This document shows positions 7,055 through 38,871 of a stretch of DNA of 64,000 nt, piece after piece. The notes beneath the pieces are model-generated. The model searched no databases and was not told the origin of the DNA. It saw nothing but the letters and a program-made list of their open reading frames with translations. The stretch covers positions 76,878 through 140,877 of the forward strand of contig CAKORY010000001.1 in the NCBI GenBank assembly GCA_934101795.1, written 5' to 3'. The stretch's first letter is position 1; each line of letters starts with the position of its first letter. The position numbers were made by a program, and so were the translations under genes. Origin of the DNA: an uncultured Bacilli bacterium (GTDB lineage: Bacteria > Bacillota_I > Bacilli_A > RF39 > UBA660).

Positions 7055-7087
7055 ATTCCTTTTTCGTTGGTAATCTAATTATAGTAT

Positions 7088-7118: not shown

Positions 7119-7129
7119 AAAATTTGGCA

Positions 7130-20290: not shown

Positions 20291-20408
20291 TATATGCAAA
20301 TTTTCTTTGCTAAATACATAATAACATAAATGTGGCTAAAAGTCAAATTTAAAAATATAAAAATTTTTCTGTTTTTATGTTATAATGAAACTATAAGGAG
20401 CAAAATAT

Positions 20409-20813: not shown

Positions 20814-20871
20814 TATTTTGACTACTTGTATTCGTTGTGATATAATTTTATTATCATAAGGAGTGATTAAT

Positions 20872-22872: not shown

Positions 22873-22905
22873 CAAATTATTTGAAGTCTTTATGTTATCA
22901 TATAT

Positions 22906-23337
22906 TTGGAAGGTGATAATATGAGGACTTTTTATATTTTTAGAATTAACAAAGAAATGGAAGTGTTACTTAAAGATAATCCCTATAATTTGTTTAAATC
23001 TTTAGAAGATATATACCTTTTAGATAAGACAAGTATAGGGATTGGAAAGGATTTATTAGATCAATTAATTGTGCCAATAGATAAACTAAAATATAATAAA
23101 TTAATATATGAACTAAATAAAGATAATGATTTTTATATGAAAAGTGGTGATACACATAAAGTAATTAATAAATATCGTAAAGAAGAAACTGTGATTATTG
23201 TTAAAAATAGCCATATTCTTCTTAAAACTAATATAATTAATCGAGATATTAAGAAATTTTTGCCAATTACGCAGGCTTTTGCTTGTGATTTTCAAAATAA
23301 AGATTATTTCTGGCTTGAAGAACTCATATATTTATAG
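22906..23337 (+). CDS. hypothetical protein, possible SirA (YneE)-like sporulation inhibitor of replication, assigned by synteny
   Basis: It is about 140 aa and lies between tkt and a YneF homolog, as in the B. subtilis tkt-sirA-yneF order. There is no strong motif evidence. Confidence 0.3.
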   Translation: MEGDNMRTFYIFRINKEMEVLLKDNPYNLFKSLEDIYLLDKTSIGIGKDLLDQLIVPIDKLKYNKLIYELNKDNDFYMKSGDTHKVINKYRKEETVIIVKNSHILLKTNIINRDIKKFLPITQAFACDFQNKDYFWLEELIYL

Positions 23338-23365
23338 TAAAATATTGGTATAAAGGAGAAAATTT

Positions 23366-23575
23366 ATGGGTAAATTAATATTATATTTAGTAATTGGTAT
23401 TATAATTGGACTTGTTATTGGTTTTTTTGTAGCTAGAGCTTTAATGAAAAAAACTTTAGAAAAAAATCCTCCGATTAATGAGAAAATGATTGAGGCTATG
23501 ATGAGTTCAATGGGAAGAAAGCCAAGTCAAAAACAAATTAATCAAGTAATGCAACAAATGAATAGATTTAAGTAA
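23366..23575 (+). CDS. yneF: UPF0154 family small membrane protein YneF
   Basis: GIIIGLVIGFFVARALMKKTLEKNPPINEKMIEAMMSSMGRKPSQKQINQVMQQM matches the B. subtilis YneF pattern (..KNPPINEQM...MG..PSQKKINQ). Confidence 0.8.
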   Translation: MGKLILYLVIGIIIGLVIGFFVARALMKKTLEKNPPINEKMIEAMMSSMGRKPSQKQINQVMQQMNRFK

Positions 23576-23589
23576 TTAAGTCTATTTTT

Positions 23590-23967
23590 TTATATTAATC
23601 CTACATCTAAAGCATCATCTTTTCTAGTTATTTCATTTATTAAGTATATAGCACCTCCGATTAAAAATAAGATGGCAGCAATTAGCTGGATAAAAGTTGA
23701 TCTATATGCTGGGTCATTAAAATTTTTTTCCATAGAACCTAAATCTTCAGTTAAAAGAAGTAAAAAATATAAGTAGATAAAAAATGCTATAAAAAAGATT
23801 GTAATGTTTATATATTTTTCTCTTTTGTAAGCTTCATTATCTTTTTTTAATAAATAATCTCTATCAAGTTTATTAGAATATAAAGCAAATACAACGATAA
23901 AAAAATAAATAATCCATATAAAATCTTCGTTTTTAAGTCTTTTTAATTTTTTATTAATATCGTTCAT
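23590..23967 (-). CDS. hypothetical membrane protein (3 TM)
   Basis: A hydrophobic ORF in convergent orientation. Confidence 0.4.
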   Translation of the reverse strand: MNDINKKLKRLKNEDFIWIIYFFIVVFALYSNKLDRDYLLKKDNEAYKREKYINITIFFIAFFIYLYFLLLLTEDLGSMEKNFNDPAYRSTFIQLIAAILFLIGGAIYLINEITRKDDALDVGLI

Positions 23968-24065
23968 GTTAAAATAATATGTATGTTATTAGAATAAAAT
24001 TATTTACAAAGTGAATATTATTAGATATAATTTATAGGTAAGTATAATTGCTGGGAGGTAAAAAT

Positions 24066-24854
24066 ATGAGAACAAGAATAATTACAGCAATAGTTGCGCT
24101 TTTAATTGTTATTCCTTTAGTGTTACTTGGAGGAATATATTTTGAACTTTTAATATGTTTAGTAGGTGCTTTTGCTTTTAAAGAAATGATTGATTTGAAA
24201 AAATCACATGGTAAAATACCTAATATGATGATATTTATTGGACTTGTTTCTTTACTTAGTTTGATTTTATCAAATAATAGTAATTTATCTATTTATTATG
24301 GATTTTCTTATCAGACTTTAGCATTAATAGTAATAGGAATTGTAGTACCTGTTATATTTTATAAGGAAGAAGAATATTCATCAAAAGATGCTTTATATCT
24401 ACTTGGTATAGTATTGTTTTTGGGACTTGCCTTAAATTCATTTTTAATAATAAGGATGCGTAGTTTTAAGACTTTGTTATTCTTACTTATTATTCCAACA
24501 TTTAATGATATATTTGCTTATATTATTGGTTCTAAATTTGGTAAAAACAAAATGTGTGTAAGTATAAGTCCAAATAAGACTTGGGAAGGTTCTATTGGTG
24601 GTTTAGTACTTGGTACAATTGGGGGAGTAGTTTTATATAGATTACTACTTGGTAAAATTACTTTTAAAGTTATATTAATTACTATTATCCTTTCTATTGT
24701 TGGTCAAATGGGAGATTTAGTAATGAGCCGCATCAAACGTGAAAATGGTATTAAGGATTTTTCTAATCTTTTACCAGGTCATGGTGGTATTTTAGATAGA
24801 CTTGATAGTTCAATATTTGTATTTTTGGCATATATGTTTATGATAATATTTTAA
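24066..24854 (+). CDS. cdsA: phosphatidate cytidylyltransferase
   Basis: The CTP_transf_1 signature SPNKTWEGSIGG is present. The product is multi-TM. The start is chosen at ATG 24066 with a GGAGG RBS; the ORF track starts at 24048. Confidence 0.85.
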   Translation: MRTRIITAIVALLIVIPLVLLGGIYFELLICLVGAFAFKEMIDLKKSHGKIPNMMIFIGLVSLLSLILSNNSNLSIYYGFSYQTLALIVIGIVVPVIFYKEEEYSSKDALYLLGIVLFLGLALNSFLIIRMRSFKTLLFLLIIPTFNDIFAYIIGSKFGKNKMCVSISPNKTWEGSIGGLVLGTIGGVVLYRLLLGKITFKVILITIILSIVGQMGDLVMSRIKRENGIKDFSNLLPGHGGILDRLDSSIFVFLAYMFMIIF

Positions 24855-24867
24855 GGAGGAATAGATT

Positions 24868-25920
24868 ATGTGGATTGTATCTGTGTTAGTGCTTATATTA
24901 ATACTTGGAATTATTATTTTAGTTCATGAGTTTGGACACTTTATTTGGGCAAAAAAGTTTGGGGTTCATATTTATGAATTTTCAATTGGTATGGGTCCAG
25001 TTATTCATACCCACAAGGGTAAAGATAAAATTGATTATAATATCAGAGCTTTTCCAATTGGTGGATTTGTTTCCATGGCTGGGGAAGTTTATGAAGATGC
25101 CGATGAAAAGATAAAAAAAGAAGATTATATGTGTAATAAACCTTGGTGGCAAAGAGTAATTATTTTAGTAGCTGGGGTTGTAAATAATTTTATATTAGCA
25201 ATTGTTTTACTTTTTTTAAGTAGTCTTATTTGGGGTGGAAATACTTTAAAACCAGTTGTTAAAAATGTAGTAGATAATTATCCAATGGCTGAAGCTGGCA
25301 TAACTAGTGGAGATACTATAACAGCCATTAATGGTCATAAGGTATCTAGCTGGGATGTTGCTCAAATAGTTTTGGTTATGAAAAATAAAAATGAGTATTA
25401 CACTTTTGATGTAAAACATGAAGATGGGAAAATGGATACCTATAAAGTTGTACCAAAAGTAGAAAAAGATGCTGATGGTAATGAAAGGCAAGTTTTTGGT
25501 ATTGAAGTTGAAAGTAATACGTTATCTGGTTTCTTTGGTTCTATAAAATATGCATTTATGAAATTTAATAGTATTGTTCATTCAATGTGGCTTACTGTGA
25601 CAGGTTTAATTACTGGTAAAATTAGTGCAAGTGCTTTATCTGGTCCAGTTGGCATGTATAAAATAGTAGATGATGGTGTTGCTCTTGGACTAAATTATAT
25701 GATTTACTTAACTGCATTTTTGTCAATTAATGTAGGATTTATTAATATTTTACCATTCCCAGCATTTGATGGCGGTAGAGTATTCTTCCTTATCGTCGAA
25801 GCAATTAGAAGAAAACCAATTAATGCTAAATTTGAAAATGCTTGTCATTTAGTAGGATTTGCACTTTTGATGCTTTTAATGATATATATTACAATTCAAG
25901 ATATAATTAGATTATTTTAA
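24868..25920 (+). CDS. rseP: RIP site-2 zinc metalloprotease RseP/RasP
   Basis: The zinc-binding motif is HEFGHF. A PDZ domain and a C-terminal LDGG motif are also present. Confidence 0.85.
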   Translation: MWIVSVLVLILILGIIILVHEFGHFIWAKKFGVHIYEFSIGMGPVIHTHKGKDKIDYNIRAFPIGGFVSMAGEVYEDADEKIKKEDYMCNKPWWQRVIILVAGVVNNFILAIVLLFLSSLIWGGNTLKPVVKNVVDNYPMAEAGITSGDTITAINGHKVSSWDVAQIVLVMKNKNEYYTFDVKHEDGKMDTYKVVPKVEKDADGNERQVFGIEVESNTLSGFFGSIKYAFMKFNSIVHSMWLTVTGLITGKISASALSGPVGMYKIVDDGVALGLNYMIYLTAFLSINVGFINILPFPAFDGGRVFFLIVEAIRRKPINAKFENACHLVGFALLMLLMIYITIQDIIRLF

Positions 25921-25921
25921 C

Positions 25922-25950
25922 TTGCATATATTAAAAAAATATGGTAATAT
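25922..25950 (+). promoter_or_regulatory. sigma-A type promoter for rplS (TTGCAT-17-TAATAT with an extended -10 TG)
   Basis: cTTGCATatattaaaaaaatatggTAATAT. Confidence 0.55.
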
Positions 25951-26027
25951 ATTGGTGACCCAAAAAAGGTATATAATCCGCTATAAAATTTATATGATTA
26001 TAGGTAATGAAATAAGGAGGTAAGAAA

Positions 26028-26369
26028 ATGGCAAATTTAGTTGACAAAATTGCTGAAAAACATATTCGTAAAGATGTTCCAGAATTTAGAGTTGGGGACA
26101 CAGTTAGAGTTGATGTTTGGGTAAAAGAAGGAAAGAAAGAACGTATCCAATCTTTTGAAGGATTAGTAATCGCTAAAAGAGGTGGAGGAGTTTCTGAAAC
26201 ATTTACAGTTCGTAAGAAAAGTGGAACTGTTGGTGTTCAAAGAATATTCCCAGTTAATGCCCCAACAATTGATAAAATTGTGGTAATCAAAAAAGGTAAA
26301 GTTCGTAGAGCTAAGCTTAACTTTATCAAAGGAATGCGTAAAGAATATAAAGTTAAGGAAAGAAGTTAA
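26028..26369 (+). CDS. rplS: 50S ribosomal protein L19
   Basis: The 113-aa product has the L19 signature (..RVGDTVRVDVWVKEG.KERIQSFEG..). Confidence 0.95.
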   Translation: MANLVDKIAEKHIRKDVPEFRVGDTVRVDVWVKEGKKERIQSFEGLVIAKRGGGVSETFTVRKKSGTVGVQRIFPVNAPTIDKIVVIKKGKVRRAKLNFIKGMRKEYKVKERS

Positions 26370-26393
26370 TTCTTTCCTTTCTTTCATTTAGGA

Positions 26394-26885
26394 GTGATTT
26401 TTATAAAAAGAATAATTAAAGAATTATTACCTTATATTATAATTGTGGTTGTGGTTGTACTTATTCGTACATTTATTGCAACACCAGTTAGAGTTGATGG
26501 GGATAGTATGAATAAGACATTTAAAAATGGCGATATCTTAATACTTTATAAACTAAGTGAGATTAAAAGATTTGATGTTATTGTGCTTCATGAAGAAAAG
26601 GATAATGAAAAAATAATAAAAAGAATTATTGGTATGCCTGGTGATACTGTTGCAATTAAAGATGGAGAAATTTATATTAATGATGAAAAAATAGATGATA
26701 AGTATGCTTATGGTATGACAAGTGATTATGATAGAATAACTTTAAAAAGTGATGAATACTTTATCCTAGGGGATAATAGACTTATTAGTAAAGATTCAAG
26801 ATATTTTGGACCTATAAAAGAAAAAGAAATTAAAGGTAAAGTTGTATTTAGAATATTCCCATTTAGTAAGTTTGGAAAAATTTAG
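26394..26885 (+). CDS. lepB: signal peptidase I (bacterial P-type)
   Basis: The catalytic Ser box is DGDSM. GDNR..SKDSR is present, with a Lys in box D. Confidence 0.85.
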   Translation: MIFIKRIIKELLPYIIIVVVVVLIRTFIATPVRVDGDSMNKTFKNGDILILYKLSEIKRFDVIVLHEEKDNEKIIKRIIGMPGDTVAIKDGEIYINDEKIDDKYAYGMTSDYDRITLKSDEYFILGDNRLISKDSRYFGPIKEKEIKGKVVFRIFPFSKFGKI

Positions 26886-26892
26886 GTGTGTT

Positions 26893-27642
26893 ATGGATTT
26901 AGTAAATTTAATGTATAAATATATAAATAGATTAATAAATAGTGATGAATTATTAGAAAAAATGAATAGTTTAGATTTAACTAGAGTTTCAGATGATGAA
27001 AAGAAAAATATAGAAAGTATTATTCAAAGTATTGAGAATATAAAAGGTGATACACCAAATGAGGTAGATGAACTTGAGAAAAATAGAATGAAAACAATTG
27101 AAGAATTTATTGATGTATTAGATAAAGCTTTAGGAAGCAATAATTTGGATAATGAAACAAAAGAAATGTTTATAAAAAGAAAACAAGGACTTGTTCTTGA
27201 CAAAGAGAAGGTTAAAGATGGTGATAAATTATATGAAAAAATATTCACTTTACTTACTCATAATGATTTGATAGCAAATTATTGCAAGAAAATGAACAAT
27301 TATGAACTTTTAGAATTTATTGTACAGTATATTAGTGTTCCAATGCCACCAGAAATTGATCAAAAAGCATTTGATGAACTTGTTCAAATTGCTATAGACA
27401 AAGATGAAAGAGAATGGTTATGGCGCTTAGCATTTAACTATAATGGAAAAAATAAGGATTTTTCATTAATTGAAGATTATTTTATTAAAGTTAAAGATGA
27501 TTATTATCTAACTGAGCTTATAAGTGCTATACAAGAAGATTTAGATATGAAAAAGTTAAAAAAGAAAGTTTTAAATACTAAAGATAATGATTTTATAGAA
27601 AAAGTTGAAGACACTTTGAAAAATTATTCTATTGAATTTTAA
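26893..27642 (+). CDS. hypothetical protein (first gene after lepB; possibly island cargo)
   Basis: The ORF has an AGGTG RBS. I recognise no domains. Confidence 0.45.
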   Translation: MDLVNLMYKYINRLINSDELLEKMNSLDLTRVSDDEKKNIESIIQSIENIKGDTPNEVDELEKNRMKTIEEFIDVLDKALGSNNLDNETKEMFIKRKQGLVLDKEKVKDGDKLYEKIFTLLTHNDLIANYCKKMNNYELLEFIVQYISVPMPPEIDQKAFDELVQIAIDKDEREWLWRLAFNYNGKNKDFSLIEDYFIKVKDDYYLTELISAIQEDLDMKKLKKKVLNTKDNDFIEKVEDTLKNYSIEF

Positions 27643-27736
27643 ACGAAAAAGCAATTATAACAAGGACATGGCTGAAAAAATGACATTGGCAAGCATCAAA
27701 GCAGATTATGCTGAGAAAGAAATATATACTTGTAAG

Positions 27737-27762
27737 TAAGATGAGAAATCATCTTATTTTTC
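27737..27762 (+). terminator. rho-independent terminator (AAGATGA-GAAA-TCATCTT plus T-run)
   Basis: Stem at 27737-43 and 27748-54, followed by ATTTTT. Confidence 0.55.
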
Positions 27763-27774
27763 TTTCTAAAAATT

Positions 27775-27803
27775 GTTGACAGACAAATATTTGTATGGTA
27801 TAT
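27775..27803 (+). promoter_or_regulatory. strong sigma-A promoter (TTGACA-17-TATATT with extended -10 TG) for the Bro-N gene
   Basis: TTGACAgacaaatatttgtaTGgTATATT. Confidence 0.6.
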
Positions 27804-27862
27804 TTTGATTATGAGATTGATGTAAAAATATTGCTAATCATTTATATAAGGGGGAATAAAAT

Positions 27863-28420
27863 ATGGATAATAGATTAGAAACTTTGTCAAATTTATTTGA
27901 AGGAACAGAAATAAGAAGCGTGTGGGATAGTGAAAAAGAAGACTATTATTTTAGTGTGGTTGATGTTATTGGTGTACTAACAGAAAGTTCAAGAGCAAGA
28001 AAGTATTGGAGTGATCTTAAGAATAAGCTTAAAAATGAAGGAAGTGAGTTGTCCGAAAATGTCGGACAACTGAAGATGAAGGCAAAAGATGGGAAGGTTT
28101 ATGCAACGGATGTATTAAATACCAAAGGAATATTAAGACTCACTGAGTCTGTACCTAGTCCAAAGGCAGAACCATTTAAAATGTGGCTGGCTAGTCTTGG
28201 TGATGAAAGAATAAATGAAGTATTTGACCCAGAGGTTGCTATTAACAGGGCTGTAAATTATTATCGTAAAAAAGGTTATAGCGATGAATGGATAAAAGCT
28301 AGACTAAGTGGAATTGTTGATAGATTTAAACTAACTGATGTTTGGAAAGATGGTGGTATAAATAAACCTGTGGAGTTTGTTTTACTTATGAATGAGATTA
28401 TAAAGGTTGATCTGGTATGA
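27863..28420 (+). CDS. Bro-N domain protein (phage antirepressor-like / DinD N-terminal-like)
   Basis: The N-terminal Bro-N pattern is LFEGTEIRSVWDSEKEDYYFSVVDVIGVLTES. Confidence 0.65.
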   Translation: MDNRLETLSNLFEGTEIRSVWDSEKEDYYFSVVDVIGVLTESSRARKYWSDLKNKLKNEGSELSENVGQLKMKAKDGKVYATDVLNTKGILRLTESVPSPKAEPFKMWLASLGDERINEVFDPEVAINRAVNYYRKKGYSDEWIKARLSGIVDRFKLTDVWKDGGINKPVEFVLLMNEIIKVDLV

Positions 28421-29042
28421 AAGTAGCAAAAAAAAGGAAACCAGAATAACTGCAATATAAAGTAATAATGCTTTAAATTATAAATATATTGATAAAAATT
28501 TGATTGAAAGTTAATAGTGTAAAGAAATAATAAAAAATAATCAAAAAAACTATGAGATATAATAAAAAAATGGTATAATAAATTTTTGTAAAGAAAATAT
28601 TTTAGTTAATAAATATGTTTTGAATATATTAGGATATATAAAAGATAATTAATTGTCTAAAGGTAAGTTATGATAAAGTAGTTGACGAGGAATACTCGTT
28701 AACTGCATTTATATAAATTAAATATAAGAAGGATGTGAAAAATGTGGATAATAACGAAACAAACATAAACTGGTATAAACCGACTTTGATTAACTTCCAA
28801 GCAAACCTTTATTTTATAAGACTTTTTATTTAATTCCTTTTTACATTTTCGAGTATAAAAATAGTAAAAGAATTCAAAAAAAAGGTAATACCGACTTATA
28901 TTAACTTTAACTTTTTTTAAAAATATAATTGTATATAAGAAAAATTTAAAAATATTGTAAATCAATTTTGTAATGGATCCATAAAGAAACCTATTATGTA
29001 ATAATAATATAAAAAGATGAGATAAAAAATCAGGAGGTAAAT

Positions 29043-30986
29043 ATGTCAAATATAAAAATAAAATTTAAACAAGAATATAAAAGTTTTAAGAAAGATTCTG
29101 AATATGAATTTGAAGGTAGATTAAATATTTTATCTGGAATAAATGGCGCGGGAAAAAGTCAATTATTAGATTGCATTAAGAACGATATAACAAATGTTTA
29201 TATAGATGGGATTAAAATATTAAATCGAAATATTGCAAAATATAGTTTTAGAGATAATATTTCTTTGCCTTCTTTTGGTTCATATGATTACAATATAACA
29301 AGACAATATAATAGTTGTATAATTAATATTTATAGAAATTATATTTCTTTGTATAATCAATATAATCAACACAAACAAAATGGTTCTCGATTTTTTGAAA
29401 TGAATTATGGATTGTCAAATGATGTATCATTTGATTCTTTTCTAGAAACAGTTATTAATTCTTCAATTAACATTAAACAAGGTAATAGCAATATCGGAAG
29501 ACAAGTTTCTATGCATTCAATTTTACAAATAATAGAATATGTAAAAAACACTTATCAAGAAGATTTTTTAGAATTAACTGATGAACAAATTTTAGGATGT
29601 ATACCTAGCAATTTTATCATTAAGTTGGATGGCGAAGAAATTGATGGTATTACTAGAATATTTACTGATGCAGCTAGATTAAGAGTTTTAGAGCAAGCTA
29701 ATTGTGGGAAAAAAGGGGTAAAATTTGATAATGATGCGTGGTTAAAATCAGCGCCTTGGACAGAAATAAATAATTTATTTGAAAAATTAAATTTTAATTA
29801 TCGTTTTTCAAATGATTATGAATATGATATTCCAAATTTAAAAGAAGAACCAAAATTATTTGCTTTTGAAAACAATCAAATTAATAAAAGAAAAGTCAGA
29901 AAAATTAATGATTTAAGTGATGGTGAGAAAGCAATACTAAAATTAGTAGTATCAACATATGATAGAAAAGAAGATAATGCAACAAAAATTTTGTTATTAG
30001 ATGAATATGATGCAACTTTAAATCCTTCTTTAATAAATGATTTTTATATAACAATACAAGAATATTATTTAGAAAAAGGGATAACCGTGTTGTTATCAAC
30101 TCATTCTCCTATAACTATTGCTATGGCACCAGAAGATACTAAATATTATGAAATATTTAGACAAGTAGAAAATTCTCCTATAATTAAAGAAGTATCAAGA
30201 GAAGAATATAAAGAATTAGAAATGATTCAATCATATTATGAAAAAATTAAAAATCCATCCAAAAGACTGAAAGAATTAGAGGGAGAAAACCAGAAACTTA
30301 AAGAAAAAATAAATTCTATGACAATTCCTCTAGTAATAACAGAAGGAAAAACAGATTGGAAGCATATAAAAAATGCTAAAAATAAACTAAATATTAATGA
30401 ACAATATGATTTTTTTGAAACAACTAATGATATGGGAGATTCAGCAATATTAAATATGCTTAAAGCACAGTCTCAAATTAGTAATACTAACAAAAGGATA
30501 TTTATATTTGACAATGATAATAAAGCTATAATTAAAGATGTTTCTGAAGAAGGTAAAAAATATAAAAAATGGGGCAATAATGTATTTTCTTTTGTAATAC
30601 CTAAACCTAATATTAGACAAAATGAAGATAGTATATCAATTGAACATTATTATACAGATGATGTGCTAAAAAAAGAAATTGTTTGTGAAGGAGGTATTAC
30701 TAGAAGAATATACTGTGGCAACGATTTTTTTAAAAATGGAAATAGTAAAGATTTAACTAAAAGATGCAACAAGAAAAATGTATGTGGTGACACAGTTATA
30801 AGAGTTTTATCTGGATCGTCAGAGGAAAAAGTATTTGATATAACTGAAGAAGAAAATAATGGTGTAAATTACGCATTGTCTAAAGATGATTTCTTCGAAA
30901 AAATTATAAAAACTGACAACAATATAGATTTAACAAGTTTTAATCTTATTTTAGATATTATTAAAGAAATAATAGAAGATAATTAG
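29043..30986 (+). CDS. OLD/Gabija(GajA)/PARIS-like fused ABC-type ATPase plus Toprim nuclease (predicted anti-phage defense protein)
   Basis: In the N-terminal ATPase, Walker A is SGINGAGKSQ, the signature-like motif is LSDGEKAIL, Walker B is KILLLDEYDATL, and the H-loop is LSTHSP. A coiled-coil linker follows. The C-terminal Toprim-like domain has the conserved Glu (PLVITEGKTD) and DxD (IFIFDNDN). Confidence 0.65.
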   Translation: MSNIKIKFKQEYKSFKKDSEYEFEGRLNILSGINGAGKSQLLDCIKNDITNVYIDGIKILNRNIAKYSFRDNISLPSFGSYDYNITRQYNSCIINIYRNYISLYNQYNQHKQNGSRFFEMNYGLSNDVSFDSFLETVINSSINIKQGNSNIGRQVSMHSILQIIEYVKNTYQEDFLELTDEQILGCIPSNFIIKLDGEEIDGITRIFTDAARLRVLEQANCGKKGVKFDNDAWLKSAPWTEINNLFEKLNFNYRFSNDYEYDIPNLKEEPKLFAFENNQINKRKVRKINDLSDGEKAILKLVVSTYDRKEDNATKILLLDEYDATLNPSLINDFYITIQEYYLEKGITVLLSTHSPITIAMAPEDTKYYEIFRQVENSPIIKEVSREEYKELEMIQSYYEKIKNPSKRLKELEGENQKLKEKINSMTIPLVITEGKTDWKHIKNAKNKLNINEQYDFFETTNDMGDSAILNMLKAQSQISNTNKRIFIFDNDNKAIIKDVSEEGKKYKKWGNNVFSFVIPKPNIRQNEDSISIEHYYTDDVLKKEIVCEGGITRRIYCGNDFFKNGNSKDLTKRCNKKNVCGDTVIRVLSGSSEEKVFDITEEENNGVNYALSKDDFFEKIIKTDNNIDLTSFNLILDIIKEIIEDN

Positions 30987-30998
30987 AGGCAAAAAAAG

Positions 30999-32195
30999 AT
31001 GGATTATTTTAAAGTAGCAGCATATCTTCGTTTATCAAAAGAAGAATATAATAATGAAAAAGAATCTAATAGTATAACTAATCAAAGACAGATTATAGAT
31101 AATTATTTAAAAGAACATAAAGAATATAGGTTAGTTGATTATTATGTAGATGATGGATATTCAGGAACTAATTTTGATAGACCAGAATTTCAAAGAATGT
31201 TAGAAAATATCAAAAATAAGAAAATAGATGTAATAATTATAAAAGATTTATCAAGACTTGGTAGAAATTATATTGAAACTAGTAATTTTGTAGAAGTAGT
31301 ATTTGCGACTATGGGAGTATCCGTAATTTCAGTAGATGAAAATTATGAAATTGATTCATCTGATTACTATGGTGGTGATTACGTTCCATTAAAGAATTTA
31401 TTTAATGATATGTATGCAAAAGATATATCAAAGAAAGTTAGAAGCTCTTTAATTGTTAAGAAACATAATGGTGAGTTTGTTGGGAAATTAGCACCTTACG
31501 GATATATAAAAGATCCAAAAGATAAACATAAATTTTTAATTGATAAGAATGTATCAAATATTATTGTAAAAATATTCGATATGATACTTGAGGGAAAAAG
31601 TAGAAGAGAAGTTGCTGATTTTTTAAATCAAAATGATACATTAACTCCAAGTGAGTACTTAAATATTAATACAAATAAAGATGTAACAGTAATGAAAAAA
31701 TGAAATTCTGAAATGGTCAACTCAATACTAAGAAACGAAAACTATACAGGTACATTATTTCAAGGTAAGAAAAGAAAATTAAATTATAGAGTCAATAAGA
31801 AAATAAACATAGATAAAGAAGATTGGATTGTTACTGAAAATCATCATAAAGCAATTATAAGTAAAGAAAAATTTGATAAAGTGCAAGATATTTTAGATAG
31901 ACAAGCTAAAGTAAATAAAGACGGAAGTATAAATATTTTTTCAGGATTTTTAAAATGTGAATGTTGTAATAATGGAATGATAAAAAGAAAATCAAAGGAT
32001 AAGGTATATTTCTATTGTTCTAACTACTATAGAAATAAAACTTGTGAAAATAATAAATCTATGAGTGAAAATAGGTTGATTGAAATTATAAAGGAAAAAT
32101 TAAATTTAACTGATAATACTAGATTAGAATTAGAAAATAAAGTAAAATATATTTATATTGATAAAGATAAAAATGTTAAGATTGATTTTAAATAG
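30999..32195 (+). pseudogene. large serine recombinase interrupted by an in-frame TGA (31701-31703) at the conserved Trp position
   Basis: An N-terminal resolvase domain (YLRLSKEE..SITNQRQ...DDGYSGTNFDRPEFQRML...IIIKDLSRLGRN) is followed by a recombinase domain and a zinc-ribbon domain (CECCNNGM..YFYCSNYY). The two ORFs 30999-31703 and 31713-32195 share one frame and are separated only by the TGA. Confidence 0.7.
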
Positions 32196-32218
32196 AATAA
32201 CAGAAAGGAGAATAGTAT

Positions 32219-33241
32219 ATGGATAATAAAAGTTTACAAATAACTAATCATGATTTTTTAATATATAGGGATTCAAATAATGATGTTAAGGTTAGTGTAA
32301 TGTTAATAAATAATGATATATGGCTTACCCAAAATTTAATTGCAGAATTATTTGGTGTAGGAAGAAGTACAATAACAGAACATATTAATAATATATTAAA
32401 TAGTGGTGAACTTGATGAAAATAACACCGTCGGAAAAACCGACGTTGATAATTCTAAAAAACCTGTAAAGATATATAACCTTGATATGATTATTGCAGTT
32501 GGATATAGAGTTAATTCTAAAAAAGCAACAAATTTTAGAATTTGGGCAACAAAAATATTAAAGGAATATATGATTAAAGGCGTAGTTATTGATGATGAAA
32601 GATTAAAAAATCCTAATTACATATTTGGAGAAGATTATTTTGAAGAAACACTTGAAAGAATTAGAAATATTCGTTCAAGTGAGAGAAGGTTTTATCAAAA
32701 AATAACAGATATATATTCTTCTTGTAGTATTGATTATGATAAAGACTCAAAAATAACAAAAGAATTTTTTAAAACTGTTCAAAATAAGTTACATTATGCA
32801 ATAACAGGAAATACTGCAGCCGAAATAATATATAATAGAGTTGACTCAGAAAAAGAACATATGGGTTTAACTAATTGGAAGAATTCTCCTGATGGACCAA
32901 TCTATAAATATGATGTTGATATTGCTAAAAATTATTTAAACGAGAAAGAATTAAAAGACTTAAATAGAATAGTAACAATGTATTTAGATTACGCAGAATT
33001 ACAAGCAGAAAATCATAATGCAATGACAATGAAAGATTGGGTAGAAAAGCTAAATGCATTTTTACAATTTAATGGTAAAGAAATATTGCACAATGCTGGG
33101 AAAATATCTGCAAAAGTTGCACAAGAGTTAGCTTATAAAGAGTATGATAAATTTAAAATCAAACAAGATAAATTATATAAATCAGATTTTGATAATTTTT
33201 TAAATGAAGCAAGAATGATAGAGAATGGAAGTGATAAATAA
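32219..33241 (+). CDS. RhuM-family virulence-associated protein
   Basis: HDFLIYRDSNNDVKVSVMLINNDIWLTQNLIAELFGVGRSTITEHINNIL is the RhuM N-terminal signature. Confidence 0.75.
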   Translation: MDNKSLQITNHDFLIYRDSNNDVKVSVMLINNDIWLTQNLIAELFGVGRSTITEHINNILNSGELDENNTVGKTDVDNSKKPVKIYNLDMIIAVGYRVNSKKATNFRIWATKILKEYMIKGVVIDDERLKNPNYIFGEDYFEETLERIRNIRSSERRFYQKITDIYSSCSIDYDKDSKITKEFFKTVQNKLHYAITGNTAAEIIYNRVDSEKEHMGLTNWKNSPDGPIYKYDVDIAKNYLNEKELKDLNRIVTMYLDYAELQAENHNAMTMKDWVEKLNAFLQFNGKEILHNAGKISAKVAQELAYKEYDKFKIKQDKLYKSDFDNFLNEARMIENGSDK

Positions 33242-33282
33242 TGGATATGTACCAAAAAAGAGAGATGAGAAAAAATAAAAAG

Positions 33283-34158
33283 ATGGATGAAAATACAAAA
33301 AGTTTACCATCTACGAGTATCAACTGGTATCCAGGTCATATGGCAAAAGCCAAAAGAGAAATTAAAGAAAGAATTAAATTAATAGATATAATTTATGAAT
33401 GCATAGATGCAAGAATGCCATCATCTTCAAAATTAAAAGGAATGGATGATATACTTGAGGCTAAACCTCGTATTTTAGTTATGACTAAAAAAGATTTGTG
33501 TGATTTAGATGAGACAAATAAATGGGTAAAATATTATGAAGAAAAAGGATATAAAGTAATTCTTGTTGATTTAACAAATAATGATGATTATAAAAAGTTA
33601 ATTAAACTTACCTTAGAAGTAGCTAAACCTATTCAAGAAAAAAGAGTAGAAAAAGGTCTTAAAAGTAAAGAAATTAAAATTGGGGTAGTTGGTATACCTA
33701 ATGTAGGAAAAAGTACTCTTATAAATAAACTTGCTGGTAAAAAAGTAAGTAATACTGGTAATAAGCCTGGAGTAACTAAACAAGTTAATTGGTTAAAAAC
33801 TAGTAATGGATTTTTGCTTCTTGATACCCCAGGGATTTTATGGCCTAAAATCGAAGATAATACGGAGGCATTAAGTTTAGCATCAACAGCAACAATAAAA
33901 ATGGAAATTTTAAATATGACAGATATTGGTGGTTATCTTATAACATTTTTTAAAAACTATTATAAAGATATATTAGAAAATAAATATAAGATTGAAATAA
34001 GTGAAGATCCTAATGATATTTTTGCTTTATTAGCTGAAAAATTTAATTTTTTTGAAAAAGATGGGGAAATTGACTATGAAAAAGTGTCAACTAAGGTGTA
34101 TAATGATTTAGTGAGTGGTTCACTTAAAGGAGTAACATTCGATAGATGGAAGAAGTAG
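33283..34158 (+). CDS. rbgA: ribosome biogenesis GTPase A (YlqF)
   Basis: The motif INWYPGHMAKAKRE is present, with circularly permuted GTPase motifs (KKDL..; GIPNVGKST). The ORF track start at 33241 overlaps the RhuM stop, so the ATG at 33283 (MDENTKS) is the more likely start. Confidence 0.8.
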   Translation: MDENTKSLPSTSINWYPGHMAKAKREIKERIKLIDIIYECIDARMPSSSKLKGMDDILEAKPRILVMTKKDLCDLDETNKWVKYYEEKGYKVILVDLTNNDDYKKLIKLTLEVAKPIQEKRVEKGLKSKEIKIGVVGIPNVGKSTLINKLAGKKVSNTGNKPGVTKQVNWLKTSNGFLLLDTPGILWPKIEDNTEALSLASTATIKMEILNMTDIGGYLITFFKNYYKDILENKYKIEISEDPNDIFALLAEKFNFFEKDGEIDYEKVSTKVYNDLVSGSLKGVTFDRWKK

Positions 34159-34781
34159 ATTTATTAAAATATGAAAAAGAATTATATAAAGAAGGGATAA
34201 CTTTAATAGCTGGAACAGATGAAGCAGGTAGAGGTCCTTTGTGCGGTCCAGTTGTTGCTGCTGCAGTTATTCTTCCTAAAAATTATACTTTGGAAGGTTT
34301 AATAGACTCTAAACAATTAAGTGAAAAAAAGAGAGATAAATTTTATGATATTATAGTTAAAGATGCCATAAGTTATGCAGTGGGGGTTGTTGATGCCAAA
34401 ACTATAGATGAAATAAACATTTACGAAGCAAGTAGAAAAGCTATGTTAGAAGCAATTGATGGTTTAAGCGTTAAGCCAGAATATGTTTTAACAGATGCTA
34501 TGCCACTTCCTATGGAAAACTCAAAAGCTATAATTCATGGTGATGCATTATCCCTTAATATTGCAGCAGCTAGTGTAATAGCTAAAGTAACACGTGATAA
34601 AATGATGTACGAGTTAGATGAAAAATATCCTATGTATGGTTTTAAAGATCATAAAGGCTATCCAACTAAAAAACATCTTGAAGCAATTAAAAAATATGGT
34701 ATACTAGATAATTATAGACTTACTTATAAGCCTGTAAAAGCGTTGATGGAGGTAAATGATGAAGAATTTGTTAAAGAATAA
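34146..34781 (+). CDS. rnhB: ribonuclease HII
   Basis: The motifs GTDEAGRGPLCGPVVAA and DSKQLS are present. Confidence 0.9.
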   Translation: MEEVDLLKYEKELYKEGITLIAGTDEAGRGPLCGPVVAAAVILPKNYTLEGLIDSKQLSEKKRDKFYDIIVKDAISYAVGVVDAKTIDEINIYEASRKAMLEAIDGLSVKPEYVLTDAMPLPMENSKAIIHGDALSLNIAAASVIAKVTRDKMMYELDEKYPMYGFKDHKGYPTKKHLEAIKKYGILDNYRLTYKPVKALMEVNDEEFVKE

Positions 34782-36807
34782 TTTAATAAAAAACTATGTG
34801 ATATTGGTAGTATTCTTTTCACTTTTAGAAATATCATTCAGATTAATAAGTGGAATATCTTTAAATAATATAGCACTTTTAAGAATATTTATTGGAGTTA
34901 ATTTTGTAAGTATTTTACTAAGTTTTATTTTGTCTTGGTTTAATAAATTAATTAGTAAGATATTAGTTCTTTTAGTATCTTTTGCTCTAAGCGCATATAC
35001 ATTTTTTCAAATTGGTTTTAATAACTTTATCGGAGTATATGCATCAGTTAATACTAAAAGTCAACTTGGAGCTGTTAAAGACTATATAATAGATTTCTTT
35101 GCTTCTTTTAAAGCAACCTATTATTTAGCTTTTATACCATTTATATTACTAATCATTTACTATTTATTTTTAGATAAGTTAACTGAAAAGAGAATTGATA
35201 AAAGATTTCCTTTGAAAACAAATATAATGTTTGAACCTGGTATTAGAACAATTACTAGTATTTTAGTTTTAACATTTACTGGCTTTTTATATTACACATC
35301 TTTAGATGCATCATTTATGCAAAATAAACTTCAAACTATTAGTAATAAAGAACTATTTGCATATCCGAGTATAGCAAGTACAACTATAAATCAATTCGGA
35401 GTTTTAGGTTTTGGATTTCTTGATATAAAATCAACAATGGTTGAAGCACCGAGTAAAGTAATTTATACTGCTTTTGAAAATAATGGTAAAGATAATAATA
35501 ATTCAGAATCTAAAAGAGAAATAGATGATACTATATTAGATGAAATAATTAAAAATGAAAAAGATACTACATTAAATAATATTAATAATTATATTAAAAA
35601 TAAAGATATTACTGATTATAATAGTCATACTGGTATGTTTGAAGGTAAAAATGTTATTGTTATTATGATGGAAAGCACTAATGATATTATAATTAATAAA
35701 GATTTATATCCAAACTTTTATAAATTATATAGTGAAGGTATAAGTTTTAAAAATAATTATAGTCCTAGAAATAGCTGTGCAACAGGAAATAATGAGTTTA
35801 GTGGAATGACAGGTCTATATACAATTCAAAATAATTGTACAGCTAATGTATTTAGTAATAATACATATTTTACATCAATATTTAATATATTTAAAAATGC
35901 AGGTTATAGAGCAACTAGTATGCATGATTATACTGAACACTATTATGTAAGAAAAATAATACATAAGAATTTAGGAAGTGAAGCATATTATAATGTTAAT
36001 GACTTAAATATTAAGTATTATAATGAATATAAAAATTGGGCAAGTGATGAAGATTTCATGAATGCTGCTATGGATATAACATTAAATGATACTAGTAATA
36101 AACCATTTATGTTATGGCTTACAACAGTTTCAGGCCACCAACCCTATAAAGTTTCAAGTGTTGAAGGAGATAAATATTTAAGTATAACTGAAGGAACAGA
36201 CTATTCAATGGAAGTAAGAAGATATATGTCTAAGTTAAAAACATTTGATAATGGTTTAGGAATCCTTCTTGATAAATTAAAGGCATCAGGTAAATTAGAT
36301 GATACAGTTATAGTTATGTATGGAGACCACTATCCATATGGACTAAAAAATAAAGATATTTCTAGTGTTCTTACTTATGATTTAGATGATTATGAAGTAG
36401 AAAGAGTACCTATGGTTATCTATAATTCTACGATTAAAAGTGAAGTTGTAGAAAAGTACAGTTCTTATATTAATTTAACACCAACTCTAGCTAATCTATT
36501 TAATTTAGATTATGATCCTAGATATTATATGGGAACTGATGTCTTTAGTGATGATTATTTAAATATGGTAGCTTTTGCAGATGGATCTTGGAAAAATGCT
36601 GATGTATATTATAATGCAAGTAGTGGTAGTATTAAATACTATACAAGTAATGAATATACAACAGATGAATTAATTAGAATAAATAATATTGTAACTAATA
36701 GAATGCAAATTAGTGAATCAATAATCCGTAATAATTATTTTAATTATTTAGATAATAAAATAAAATCCTATAATTATGTAAATGCTACGGAAAGAGAGGA
36801 TAATTAA
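34756..36807 (+). CDS. LtaS-family sulfatase-fold membrane protein (lipoteichoic acid synthase-like phosphoglycerol transferase)
   Basis: Five N-terminal TM helices are followed by an extracellular sulfatase domain (MMESTNDII...NNYSPRNSCATGNNEFSGMTG...SGHQPY). Confidence 0.7.
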   Translation: MMKNLLKNNLIKNYVILVVFFSLLEISFRLISGISLNNIALLRIFIGVNFVSILLSFILSWFNKLISKILVLLVSFALSAYTFFQIGFNNFIGVYASVNTKSQLGAVKDYIIDFFASFKATYYLAFIPFILLIIYYLFLDKLTEKRIDKRFPLKTNIMFEPGIRTITSILVLTFTGFLYYTSLDASFMQNKLQTISNKELFAYPSIASTTINQFGVLGFGFLDIKSTMVEAPSKVIYTAFENNGKDNNNSESKREIDDTILDEIIKNEKDTTLNNINNYIKNKDITDYNSHTGMFEGKNVIVIMMESTNDIIINKDLYPNFYKLYSEGISFKNNYSPRNSCATGNNEFSGMTGLYTIQNNCTANVFSNNTYFTSIFNIFKNAGYRATSMHDYTEHYYVRKIIHKNLGSEAYYNVNDLNIKYYNEYKNWASDEDFMNAAMDITLNDTSNKPFMLWLTTVSGHQPYKVSSVEGDKYLSITEGTDYSMEVRRYMSKLKTFDNGLGILLDKLKASGKLDDTVIVMYGDHYPYGLKNKDISSVLTYDLDDYEVERVPMVIYNSTIKSEVVEKYSSYINLTPTLANLFNLDYDPRYYMGTDVFSDDYLNMVAFADGSWKNADVYYNASSGSIKYYTSNEYTTDELIRINNIVTNRMQISESIIRNNYFNYLDNKIKSYNYVNATEREDN

Positions 36808-38832
36808 ATGAAAAATTTAGTAATAGTGGAATCTCCAGCTAAATGTAAAACTATTGAAAAGTATTTAGGTAGTGATTATAAAGTTGTTTCTAGTAAAGGA
36901 CATATTAGGGATTTAGCTACAACTGGTAAGTTTGGTTTAGGACTTGATATTGAAAATGATTTTAAACCAAATTATGAAATAATTAAAGGAAAGAAAAAAG
37001 AAGTAACAGAATTAAAAAAAGATGTTAAAGATGCAGATATGGTATATCTTGCAACTGACCCAGACCGTGAAGGAGAAACAATTTCTTGGCATATTTATGA
37101 TGAAGTAAAAGTTCCAGAGGAAAAATATAAAAGAGTAGTATTTAATGAAATAACTAAAGATGTAGTTATAAATGCTATAAATAATCCTGGTAAAATAGAT
37201 ATGAACTTAGTTAAGTCTGGTGAAACTAGAAGATTCTTAGATAGAATAATAGGTTTTAGATTAAGTAAGTTAATGCAAAGAAAAACTGGGGGAAAGTCAG
37301 CTGGTAGAGTACAAAGTGTAGCTCTAAAATTAATTGTGGATAGAGAAAGAGAAATACAAAGCTTTGTACCTAGAGAATATTGGACAATTGAAGCTGATTT
37401 TAAAGATTTTAAAGCAATGCTTGATAAATATCATGGTAAGGATATTGAAATTGCAAATGAAGCACAAGCTGATGAAATATTAAGTAATCTTTCTAAATCA
37501 TTTAAAATAGAAAGTGTAGAAGAAAAAGAAAAGAATAAAGTAGCACGTGAAGTATTTAAAACTAGTACACTTCAACAAGCAGCATCTAATAAATTAGGGT
37601 TTGCACCAAGTAAAACAATGAAAGTTGCTCAAGATTTATATGAAGGTAAAACTTTAAAAAGTGAAACAGTAGGTTTAATTACTTACATGAGAACTGATAG
37701 TGTTAGAGTAAGTGATACATTTGTTAAAGAAACTTTTGGTTTTATTAAAGGTAAATTTGGGGAAAATTATATTGGATATGTTAAAAAGGGTAAAAAGAAT
37801 GAAAATATGCAAGATGCACATGAAGGTATTAGACCAACAAGTATTAATAGAACACCAGAAGAAGTTAAAGCATATTTAACAAATGATGAATATAAGCTTT
37901 ATAAACTTATATATACTAGAGCACTTGCATCACTTATGGCAGATGCTAAAACACTTGCAACTACTGTAATACTTGAAAATAATGGATATACATTTAAAGC
38001 AACTGGTAGTGTTTTAACATTTGATGGTTATTTAAAAGTATATAGTGAATATGAAGATAGTGAAGATGTAATACTTCCAGATTTAAAAAATTATAAATCT
38101 GGTTGTATAACAGCTGATGATATAACTAAAACACAACATTTTACTAAACCAGCTCCAAGATTTACGGAAAGTAGTTTAATTAAAGAAATGGAAAGTTTAG
38201 GTATAGGTAGACCATCTACATATGCAACTATAGTGGGTACTATTAAAGATAGAGGATATGTTATTTTAAAAGATAAGAAGTTTGTACCAACAGAAATTGG
38301 TATTGAAACAACTGATAAATTACAAGAATTCTTTAGTGGTATTGTAAATGTAGAATATACTGCTAATATGGAAGAAGATTTAGATAAAATAGCAGAAAAT
38401 AAAATGGATTATTTAAAAGTATTACATGAATTCTATGATGAATTTGAGCCACTTGTAGAAAAAGCATTCCATGAAATGGAAAAGAAAGGTCCAGAAGAAA
38501 CTGGGGAAGTTTGTCCAGAATGTGGTAGTGCTTTAGTAATAAGAAAAGGTAAATTTGGAGAGTTTATAGCATGTAGTAATTATCCAACATGTAAATATAT
38601 AAAAAAAGAAAAAAAAGAAGTTGTAGAAATTTGTAAATGTCCTAAATGTGATAAAGGTATGATAGTTGAAAGAAAAACTAAAAAGGGTAAAATATTTTAT
38701 GGATGTAATAATTATCCTAAATGTAATTATGCACTTTGGTATAAACCAACTGGTGATATATGTCCAAAGTGTGGTGAACTTTTAGTAGATAAAAATGGAG
38801 AAATAACTTGTGTTAATTGTAATAAAGAGTAG
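36808..38832 (+). CDS. topA: DNA topoisomerase I
   Basis: A Toprim N-terminus (LVIVESPAKCKTIEKYLG) is present, as are the active-site region GLITYMRTDS and three C-terminal Zn ribbons (CPECG, CPKCD, CPKCG). Confidence 0.95.
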   Translation: MKNLVIVESPAKCKTIEKYLGSDYKVVSSKGHIRDLATTGKFGLGLDIENDFKPNYEIIKGKKKEVTELKKDVKDADMVYLATDPDREGETISWHIYDEVKVPEEKYKRVVFNEITKDVVINAINNPGKIDMNLVKSGETRRFLDRIIGFRLSKLMQRKTGGKSAGRVQSVALKLIVDREREIQSFVPREYWTIEADFKDFKAMLDKYHGKDIEIANEAQADEILSNLSKSFKIESVEEKEKNKVAREVFKTSTLQQAASNKLGFAPSKTMKVAQDLYEGKTLKSETVGLITYMRTDSVRVSDTFVKETFGFIKGKFGENYIGYVKKGKKNENMQDAHEGIRPTSINRTPEEVKAYLTNDEYKLYKLIYTRALASLMADAKTLATTVILENNGYTFKATGSVLTFDGYLKVYSEYEDSEDVILPDLKNYKSGCITADDITKTQHFTKPAPRFTESSLIKEMESLGIGRPSTYATIVGTIKDRGYVILKDKKFVPTEIGIETTDKLQEFFSGIVNVEYTANMEEDLDKIAENKMDYLKVLHEFYDEFEPLVEKAFHEMEKKGPEETGEVCPECGSALVIRKGKFGEFIACSNYPTCKYIKKEKKEVVEICKCPKCDKGMIVERKTKKGKIFYGCNNYPKCNYALWYKPTGDICPKCGELLVDKNGEITCVNCNKE

Positions 38833-38854
38833 CATCAATAGATGCTATTTTTTA
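38829..38854 (+). terminator. rho-independent terminator after topA (TAGCATC-AATA-GATGCTA plus T6)
   Basis: tagcatcaatagatgctatttttt. Confidence 0.8.
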
Positions 38855-38871
38855 GAATAAAAACTAAAAGT

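Follow-up and report, generated by a model that had tools for sequence, protein, structure and literature searches.

What separates lepB from rbgA in the genome of an uncultured Bacilli bacterium, and did it arrive there as a single element? The question is raised by a 64,000-nucleotide stretch of DNA (hereafter the window; 25.7% G+C; standard bacterial code, table 11), in which every gene between 26.0 and 34.8 kb lies on the + strand and five genes, encoding a hypothetical protein, a Bro-N protein, a fused ATPase-Toprim protein, a serine recombinase, and a RhuM protein, are found between lepB and rbgA. An earlier interpretation of this DNA from its letters only (the sequence-only reading) correctly listed all five genes and took them to be one 6.4-kb island (26886–33282) that interrupts a normally contiguous gene pair. 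We find that the recombinase-borne accessory insertion is a smaller unit of 4,554 bp, at 28,773–33,326, with three genes (OLD-like ATPase/Toprim, recombinase, and RhuM). This unit is very probably an integrative cassette, recently mobile and now immobilized, that is located in the 5′ end of the ribosome-assembly gene rbgA. It is a member of a large and apparently undescribed family of small cassettes in uncultured human-gut Bacilli.

The extent of the element was determined by comparison with a metagenome-assembled genome (MAG) from the Hadza gut, denoted L001, which is the nearest genome to the window (about 95% identical in the flanks). L001 is one of 80 loci (L001–L080) collected with RbgA as the query in a scan of one genome per species, all of them from uncultured gut MAGs of the "Bacilli/Tenericutes" type. 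Using blastn, positions 20001–27650 of the window were aligned to L001 at 95.4% identity, 27699–28776 at 85%, and 33319–38955 at 92%. The two inner alignments (27699–28776 and 33319–38955) overlap by 12 bp in L001, and the insertion defined by blastn is 28,777–33,318. The gene order in L001 is rplS-lepB-orf1-BroN-rbgA, from which only the ATPase, recombinase, and RhuM genes are missing. An empty site for 28,773–33,326 is thus available in L001, but it is not the bare lepB-rbgA pair that had been anticipated, as orf1 and the Bro-N gene are retained. The features of the locus are as follows.

26028–26369, + strand: rplS (Pfam Ribosomal_L19, 6e-40), conserved left flank
26394–26885, + strand: lepB (Pfam Peptidase_S26, 2e-42), conserved left flank
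26893–27642, + strand: orf1, a 249-residue hypothetical protein of no family
27643–27775, + strand: decayed spacer with the 3′ remnant of a lost gene and a hairpin with a T-run (27738–27756), from the comparison of the window with L001
27776–28420, + strand: Bro-N gene with its own promoter (promoter 27776–27804; coding sequence 27863–28420; Pfam Bro-N, 2.3e-10)
28421–28773, + strand: native rbgA upstream region and displaced rbgA 5′ end (host half of the predicted attL), collinear with L001 up to the TGG
28768–28776, + strand: predicted attL core, AACTGGTAT, the same 9-mer as at 33322–33330
28774–29042, + strand: left end of the element, with a P′ arm (28774–28800), a second P′ copy (28889–28908), and a promoter-like site (28901–28929)
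29043–30986, + strand: cargo slot 1, OLD-like ABC-ATPase/Toprim protein, 647 residues, a single gene
30999–32195, + strand: large serine recombinase, 398 codons, with an in-frame TGA at 31701–31703
32219–33241, + strand: cargo slot 2, RhuM-family protein, 340 residues (Pfam Virulence_RhuM, 7.7e-110)
33241–33324, + strand: replacement rbgA 5′ end supplied by the element (MDMYQKREMRKNKKMDENTKSLPSTSIN), including the P arm at about 33297–33324
33322–33330, + strand: predicted attR core, AACTGGTAT, in which TGG (33325–33327) is the Trp codon of INWYPGHM
33325–34158, + strand: host-derived remainder of rbgA (Pfam MMR_HSR1 and RsgA_GTPase)
34146–34781, + strand: rnhB, which follows rbgA

The insertion is bounded by the 9-bp repeat, which is found at these two positions only. 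The left breakpoint in the window joins …GTGGATAATAACGAAACAAACATAAACTGGTAT to AAACCGAC…, the right breakpoint joins …CCATCTACGAGTATCAACTGGTAT to CCAGGTCATATGGC…, and the matching sequence of L001 joins …GTGGATAGTAACGAAATAAACATAAACTGGTAT to CCAGGTCATATGGC…, with the uninterrupted order of native start, AACTGGTAT, and CCAGGTCAT. In the entire window there is a single P′-type junction pattern and a single rbgA-type one, separated by 4,554 bp. The insertion point interrupts the reading frame of rbgA at the codons for N-W-Y in the conserved INWYPGHM motif. The right boundary had previously been placed between genes at 33,282, with attachment repeats expected at 26.89 and 33.25 kb; the real end is inside rbgA at 33,322–33,330, and the repeats are instead the 9-bp cores at 28.77 and 33.32 kb.

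A serine recombinase would be expected to leave a short att core. The junctions have a short identical core of 9 bp, a TGG that is common to all junction types, and arms that form inverted repeats; the P/P′ inverted-repeat anatomy appears to be that expected for serine-integrase att sites. From the dyad symmetry we infer that the crossover occurs at or next to the TG (28771–28772) of the invariant Trp codon TGG. When attP-like junctions from related loci (described below) were centered on this TG, dyad matches were obtained at 19/26 positions in L072, 16/26 in L070, and 15/26 in L089, and the L072 junction includes a perfect 11-bp inverted repeat. The attP for an intact version of the recombinase (P0121) was reconstructed as …ACGAGTATCAAC TG GTATAAACCGAC…, which may also be written …AAGTTTACCATCTACGAGTATCAAC TG GTATAAACCGACTTTGATTAACTT…, and the predicted junction sequence of the excised, circular form of the cassette is ACGAGTATCAACTGGTATAAACCGAC. 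A candidate remnant of an rbgA B′ arm at about 27,663 was dropped, as the resemblance (AAGGACATGGCTGAAAA) is too short to evaluate.

These boundaries bear directly on the proposal that one island of five genes (26,886–33,282) was inserted as a unit between lepB and rbgA. Both genes are present in 19 of the 80 loci; they are directly adjacent in four of these (L029, L044, L051, and L075) and 0.7–8.8 kb apart in the other 15, so the entire interval in the window is indeed accessory at the level of the clade. In addition, genes for Bro-N and RhuM-type proteins co-occur upstream of rbgA in L007, L023, and L035. However, orf1 and the Bro-N gene are common to L001, which is without the recombinase segment, and the 6.4-kb interval is therefore not one island. 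The native rbgA start and its upstream region sit between the Bro-N gene and the element, no direct repeat or junction was found at about 26.89 kb, and two further loci (L166 and L168) hold only the 4.55-kb unit, with the same junctions in unrelated contexts. A joint insertion of all five genes is thus very unlikely.

The location of the element inside rbgA raises the question of how the gene has survived. At the left junction the displaced native 5′ end of rbgA runs from GTG at 28744 to AAC TGG at 28771–28773 and encodes V-D-N-N-E-T-N-I-N-W, and the native start codon and the first nine codons are stranded there. The right end of the element, MDMYQKREMRKNKKMDENTKSLPSTSIN, supplies a leader of 28 codons that is in frame with W-Y-P-G-H-M at the TGG. 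The ATG of this leader at 33,241 overlaps the stop codon of the RhuM gene as TAATG and is preceded, in the last codons of RhuM, by the sequence GGAAGTGA, which resembles a ribosome-binding site (RBS). The rebuilt rbgA is therefore likely to span 33241–34158 and to encode 305 residues, with a start that is not at 33283. From residue 12 on, RbgA is 97% identical in amino acid sequence to that of L001. The GGAAGTGA motif also precedes native rbgA starts in many loci. As a side observation, the last codons of RhuM (GGAAGTGATAAATAATG, window 33226–33243) mimic the native RBS-start motif of rbgA, GGAAGTGAT(A)AAAATG, as taken from the native starts in L007, L014, L018, L036, L040, and L073, and the cassette thus brings its own imitation of the translation-initiation region of the host gene. 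Separately, a hairpin with a 12-bp stem followed by a T-rich tract was noted at 28678–28706, about 40 nucleotides upstream of the displaced rbgA start; it is kept in L001 and could act as a leader structure or terminate the Bro-N unit.

A mechanism can be proposed from these features. The compact 398-residue recombinase encoded by the cassette would have recombined the cassette attP with an attB that corresponds to the first conserved codons of rbgA (I-N-W-Y-P-G-H-M). Integration strands the native RBS, the start codon, and the first nine codons of rbgA at the left junction, and the right end of the cassette supplies a substitute RBS (GGAAGTGA), a start codon at 33,241, and a 28-codon leader in frame at the TGG. 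The essential GTPase gene would be kept intact in this manner and is presumably now transcribed from the cassette. The recombinase gene is flanked by two cargo slots, occupied in the window by the OLD-like protein and by RhuM, a proposed toxin or defense effector. The window copy appears to have been acquired recently, since the element is missing from the sister L001 and is found in other hosts at identities of 99.3% and 95.6%, and it was then immobilized by a TGG-to-TGA change at the conserved Trp235 of the recombinase.

The first of these other hosts is represented by L166, in which the same DNA is found at 99.3% identity over 3,547 bp (window 28717–32263, to the end of the contig), downstream of rbfA, truB, and DUF1653 genes. 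At its left junction a different native rbgA stub (ATGAACGAAAACAAAACAAATATCAAC TGG) is joined to the same end of the element, and its recombinase (P0121, 398 residues) is intact and 99% identical to that of the window. In L168 the whole element is present, at 95.6% identity over 4,668 bp with both junctions included, between a NUDIX/purA gene and rbgA-RNase III; the recombinase is intact and the ATPase gene is about 100% identical to that of the window. A wider scan of metagenomes with the recombinase as the query yielded about 45 relatives at 70–91% identity. About 45 related cassettes were found at the same TGG of rbgA, although the adjoining RbgA proteins are only 37–54% identical to that of the window, and the recombinase relatives lie directly upstream of rbgA wherever the flank is present. 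More than 15 loci encode a RhuM protein that is 96% identical in amino acid sequence to that of the window but an RbgA protein that is only 37–54% identical. The P arm (45 nucleotides to the left of the TGG) is conserved in 13 other loci in addition to L167 and L168, and the sequence to the right of the TGG tracks the host. At the opposite end, about 40 left junctions were compared, and in all of them the TGG is followed by a related P′ arm. These junctions are preceded either by a native-type rbgA start, as in a true attL, or by the P arm of another cassette, as in an attP-like joint.

Could homologous recombination between conserved flanks, during transformation or transduction for instance, have spread the cassettes, with the recombinase as a passenger? 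The recombinases of 10 of the roughly 45 close relatives are broken by stop codons and several more by apparent frameshifts or deletions, and tandem arrays could form by exchange between related cassettes, as such a model would have it. The junctions argue otherwise. In sliding windows the identity to L167 and L168 falls from 90–100% to 50–70% within the 100-bp bin that holds 33,325, and the similarity ends abruptly, within a few bases, at the same TGG; hosts with RbgA proteins at 37–54% identity leave no flank in which such exchange could take place, and the junctions have the P/P′ inverted-repeat anatomy of serine-integrase sites. We give this alternative very little weight and favor integration by the cassette recombinase.

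In many loci the cassettes are arranged in tandem with attP-like joints between them. One example is L091, in which a native rbgA stub at 1950 and the rbgA gene at 10322 enclose four cassettes, of which only the one proximal to rbgA contains a recombinase gene. In eight of the 80 representative loci, the region just upstream of rbgA contains one or two serine recombinase genes. As a separate observation, two serine recombinase genes occur in tandem in L012, L031, L060, L076, and L079, and four in L153, an arrangement that is reminiscent of the ccrA/ccrB pairs; the rbgA leaders of these six loci fall into distinct sequence classes. The contigs of 26 of the 80 representatives end within about 430 bp upstream of rbgA (L002, L005, L013, L021, L025, L027, L028, L047, L052, L062, L065, L069, and 14 more). 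This suggests that MAG assemblies break systematically at the cassette site, as expected at a repeated, strain-variable site, and would explain the frequent contig breaks at rbgA in this clade.

The relatives of the element are 2.6–4.6 kb in length, and their cargo is interchangeable, with other genes in the two slots. A UDG-superfamily protein is encoded in L092 and L167, GNAT acetyltransferases in L100 and L105, a nucleoside-deoxyribosyltransferase-like protein in L081, an adenosine-deaminase-like protein in L099, and a serine hydrolase in L104. In L086 the same slot holds a complete pair for a cyclic-oligonucleotide-based antiphage signaling system (CBASS), with a SMODS cyclase (6.9e-130) and a 2TM effector (7.7e-73). 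The exchange of defense-type genes in the slots is therefore documented for this cassette family. Degenerate copies of the ATPase-recombinase-RhuM cassette itself were also observed, in L082/L083 and in L081. The ATPase gene of L082 is split and its recombinase gene has three internal deletions; in L081 the recombinase is truncated and the gene in slot 2 is different. At the right end of L082/L083, RhuM is joined directly to a native-looking rbgA start with no P arm. A pair of transposase-like open reading frames, putatively ISL3-like, is located immediately to the left of the cassette attL in L100 (positions 6069–7222, minus strand).

The recombinase was identified by matches to Pfam Resolvase (PF00239, 4.7e-27), Recombinase (PF07508, 1.9e-13), and Zn_ribbon_recom (PF13408, 1.2e-11), which are spread over the two fragments created by the internal stop codon; PF07508 and PF13408 are on the C-terminal fragment, and both are found in all intact homologues. 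The putative nucleophile, S13, is invariant in 29 homologues. The closest catalytic domains of solved structure are those of TnpX, to which the sequence YLRLSKEE was aligned by a profile search (1.9e-25), and the TP901-1 integrase. Matches in NCBIfam were below threshold and included XisF and the Ccr models (CcrB, 107.6 bits against a cutoff of 900; CcrC, 85.1 against 900; CcrA, 64.2 against 700). Intact members of the family have 396–408 residues, which to our knowledge is shorter than the characterized large serine recombinases, and only 49 residues follow the last Cys of the zinc ribbon. In those enzymes a long coiled-coil motif in the zinc-ribbon domain controls the selectivity for attP × attB. 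The AlphaFold2 model has two short helices at the C-terminus, at 357–368 and 375–381, with predicted local distance difference test (pLDDT) scores of 78–89, in a model that is poor as a whole (pLDDT 56.7).

In the window, codon 235 of the recombinase (31701–31703), which specifies a conserved Trp, has been changed from TGG to TGA, and the enzyme is inactivated. The claim that the element carries a recombinase disabled by an internal stop, and is an integrative element that has become immobile, was sound in this regard, although its bounds were misplaced and two layers of DNA had been assembled into one unit. The window copy falls short of a functional recombinase. Codon 235 is TGG in about 42 relatives, TGA in L098 and L132, and TGT in L090. 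The nonsense mutations in the other relatives are scattered and unrelated to that of the window, and frameshifts (apparent) or deletions are found in several more, such as the internal deletions in L082; the window copy is therefore one case of a common decay of the recombinase that follows integration. L098 and L132 constitute two sequence backgrounds other than that of the window, and the recurrent change at Trp235 could reflect a mutational hotspot (AAAAAATGGAAT), convergent inactivation, or a leaky stop. Programmed recoding of TGA, or use of genetic code 4, was ruled out: the conserved host genes are all open under code 11, TGA is used as a terminator by host genes, about 42 homologues have TGG at this position, and the nonsense mutations are scattered.

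A prophage or phage-satellite remnant is another conceivable source of the element. Bro-N proteins, RhuM proteins, and serine integrases are common in phages, and PHROG families were matched by Bro-N (phrog_15286, 2.2e-69), by the ATPase (phrog_8323, 2.7e-20), and by the recombinase (phrog_95, integrase, 2.9e-96, with the profile positions beyond 460 of 651 unmatched). However, structural, replication, and packaging genes are absent from the element and from its 2.6–4.6-kb relatives, and a search of 2.9 million IMG/VR contigs for relatives of the recombinase gave none. A phage origin is extremely improbable on this evidence, and a non-phage cassette is the better description.

The gene in cargo slot 1 was proposed to encode a fused ATPase-Toprim protein, and this is borne out. 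The protein is matched by Pfam AAA_21 (5e-12) and SMC_N, its N-terminal region by the PADLOC models for the AriA, GajA, and PtuA ATPases, and residues 406–646 by the PADLOC model RT-Toprim_I-C (2e-18). Across 36 homologues, D490 and D492 are invariant and E434 is nearly so; the invariant residues of the ATPase include G32, G35, G37, and K38 of Walker A, D320-E321 of Walker B, and H354 of the H-loop. A Foldseek search with the AlphaFold2 model (pLDDT 81.5) provided near-full-length matches to the OLD nuclease from T. scotoductus (6p74) and the effector of retron-Eco8, with 578–617 columns aligned, in addition to the heads of SMC, Rad50, AriA, and PtuA. When the single sequence was searched against the PDB, only generic ABC matches were obtained; a profile search led to the ATPase of retron Ec83 and, weakly, to that of Ec67. 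About 400 proteins make up this family, and they are unannotated in the databases. No partner (reverse transcriptase, noncoding RNA, GajB helicase, or separate AriB) was found beside the gene, the neighbors of which are the recombinase and RhuM genes only, and the homologues in L084 are also solitary. A retron or noncoding RNA partner was ruled out, as there is no Rfam match in 25,500–35,000 and no tRNA. We regard the slot-1 protein as a divergent OLD-like protein encoded by a single gene and probably an ATP-driven nuclease. It shares with the OLD family (P2 Old class 1, 6p74, the retron-Eco8 effector, GajA, and AriA/AriB) an ABC ATPase, a helical linker, and a C-terminal Toprim domain with E…DxD. 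It differs in having no partner gene and in its divergent Toprim domain, which is closest to the retron I-C RT-Toprim model.

The protein encoded in slot 2 is a full-length member of the RhuM family (PF13310, profile positions 10–249 of 252; PADLOC PDC-S05, 1.8e-142). RhuM has been proposed, from gene neighborhoods, as a toxin domain in multi-level defense loci (PMC3710099). The sequence-only reading regarded the cargo as defensive. That description is well grounded for the family, in view of the CBASS genes in L086, but for the two cargo genes of the window a putative defense role is inferred from family resemblance and candidate-level PADLOC models.

Some observations weigh against the account given here. 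All of the steps of the mechanism are drawn from comparative sequence, and an insertion in the lineage of the window is indistinguishable from a precise excision in that of L001. The attP reconstructed for the window itself is weakly symmetric, and the TG is not its top-scoring center. The 3′ end of RhuM, upstream of the rebuilt rbgA, contains only weak promoter-like matches (9/12). With respect to the cargo, a Pfam Toprim domain was not detected in the slot-1 protein at E ≤ 0.01, and the Foldseek TM-scores to OLD proteins are low (0.17–0.21), as expected for a multi-domain model. The antiphage roles of both cargo genes are putative, and RhuM corresponds to a PADLOC candidate only (PDC-S05).

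The left end of the element is conserved in about 40 related cassettes and has an additional feature. A 20-nucleotide segment of the P′ arm is directly repeated 111–114 bp downstream, mostly at 113 bp, and this holds for about 35 of the 38 distinct left ends. The two copies match at 15–20 of 20 positions, compared with a mean of about 11.7 for shuffled sequences, and they covary between cassette subtypes. In the window they are located at 28778–28797 and 28889–28908, 111 bp apart. The second copy overlaps the −35 element of a promoter-like sequence, TTAACT-17-TATAAT (28901–28929), ahead of the slot-1 gene. Matches to a duplicated P arm at the right end are at the level of chance. The second P′ copy is a possible operator or accessory site. 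We know of no second copy of a P′ half-site described for large serine recombinases.

No description of this cassette family was found in full-text literature searches (rbgA combined with serine recombinase, or with hotspot and defense). In mode of action the closest system, by analogy, is the staphylococcal cassette chromosome (SCC/SCCmec; CcrAB/CcrC). In both cases cassettes that are neither conjugative nor phage-borne are moved by large serine recombinases to a single fixed site, located at one end of a conserved housekeeping gene that is related to the ribosome, and the reading frame of that gene is kept. Further points of likeness are the composite arrays of tandem cassettes, some of them without a recombinase, the exchangeable accessory genes that they carry, and, in some of the rbgA relatives (L012, L031, L060, L076, and L079), paired recombinase genes. 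The rbgA cassettes differ in their target, which in SCC is the 3′ end of rlmH (orfX) and here the rbgA 5′ end, in their length (2.6–4.6 kb rather than 20–60 kb), and in carrying defense-type genes rather than resistance genes in uncultured gut Bacilli. Their recombinase, of about 398 residues, is far below the NCBIfam Ccr cutoffs and is not a Ccr equivalog.

The arrays also resemble integrons, in that small cassettes, mostly of one or two genes, are placed head to tail at one site and many are without a recombinase of their own (as among the four cassettes in L091). Here the recombinase is a serine enzyme and is cassette-borne, whereas that of an integron belongs to a fixed platform; in place of folded attC sites the cassettes have junctions that are attP-like and double-stranded, and the array is located inside the 5′ end of an essential gene. 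We propose, tentatively and as a possibility rather than a probability, that the 5′ end of rbgA serves as an SCC- or integron-like platform at which compact serine recombinases, apparently poor in coiled coil, stack and exchange defense cassettes of one to three genes at the invariant Trp codon, with a regulatory second P′ copy and a leaky TGA. Cassettes without a recombinase may be mobilized in trans, and the second P′ copy may control directionality or the expression of the recombinase. Low-level read-through of UGA as Trp would restore the recombinase, and the TGA at codon 235 might therefore throttle the enzyme and not abolish it.

The 5′ end of rbgA is a documented integration site for integrative and conjugative elements (ICEs) of streptococci that use tyrosine integrases (Ambroset et al. 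2016, PMC4701971; Libante et al. 2019, PMC7168690). Those elements target the same end of the same gene, and the N-terminus of RbgA is preserved or rebuilt, with replacement of the upstream region in some cases. They differ in their tyrosine integrases, in direct repeats of 12–54 bp, and in being large and conjugative, as members of the Tn5252 and Tn1549 families, whereas the element in the window has a serine recombinase, a shared core of 9 bp, and no transfer genes. Neither a tyrosine recombinase nor a transfer gene was found in 26.8–33.3 kb. The cassettes would thus constitute a second, mechanistically independent case of mobile elements that have chosen the 5′ end of rbgA.

The target of the cassettes is a near-universal bacterial motif of RbgA, INW[Y/F]PGHM, and the precise attP/attB pair and the very small (398-residue) family of serine integrases may be of interest to genome engineers. 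The family also illustrates the movement of defense genes (CBASS, OLD-like nuclease, RhuM, and others) between uncultured gut Bacilli with small genomes, for which we know of no conjugative or phage vehicles.

The remainder of the interval, from orf1 to the Bro-N gene, lies outside the recombinase element and appears to be an older, decaying layer that is accessory at the level of the clade; the cassette would have landed to the right of this layer, which already occupied the lepB-rbgA interval. The orf1 sequence is 95.6% identical in L001 (tblastn) and is absent from the other 79 rbgA loci. No family was found for it in Pfam, NCBIfam, PHROG, or PADLOC, and none of its 187 representative homologues has an assigned function. 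The strong promoter that had been attributed to the Bro-N gene is present: TTGACA-17-TATATT, with an upstream TG, at 27776–27804 matches the consensus at 11 of 12 positions. The gene itself is matched by PADLOC PDC-S13 (3.6e-76) at profile positions 7–179 of 286 only. In the window a frameshift, a TGG-to-TGA change, and a deletion interrupt it at about residue 181, and what is left is a pseudogene-like, truncated sequence of about 181 codons; the copy in L001 is broken differently. Intact homologues (PDC-S13) of 286–296 residues adjoin rbgA in L023, L035, L043, L056, and L066. In L001 an additional 269 bp is found between orf1 and the promoter of the Bro-N gene and encodes an N-terminal fragment of the type III toxin ToxN/AbiQ (L001:8769–8939; Pfam ToxN_toxin, 8.2e-08), and in the window (27651–27737) a different deletion has left the shared 3′ remnant alone. 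This is more evidence that the interval from orf1 to Bro-N is a graveyard of defense genes.

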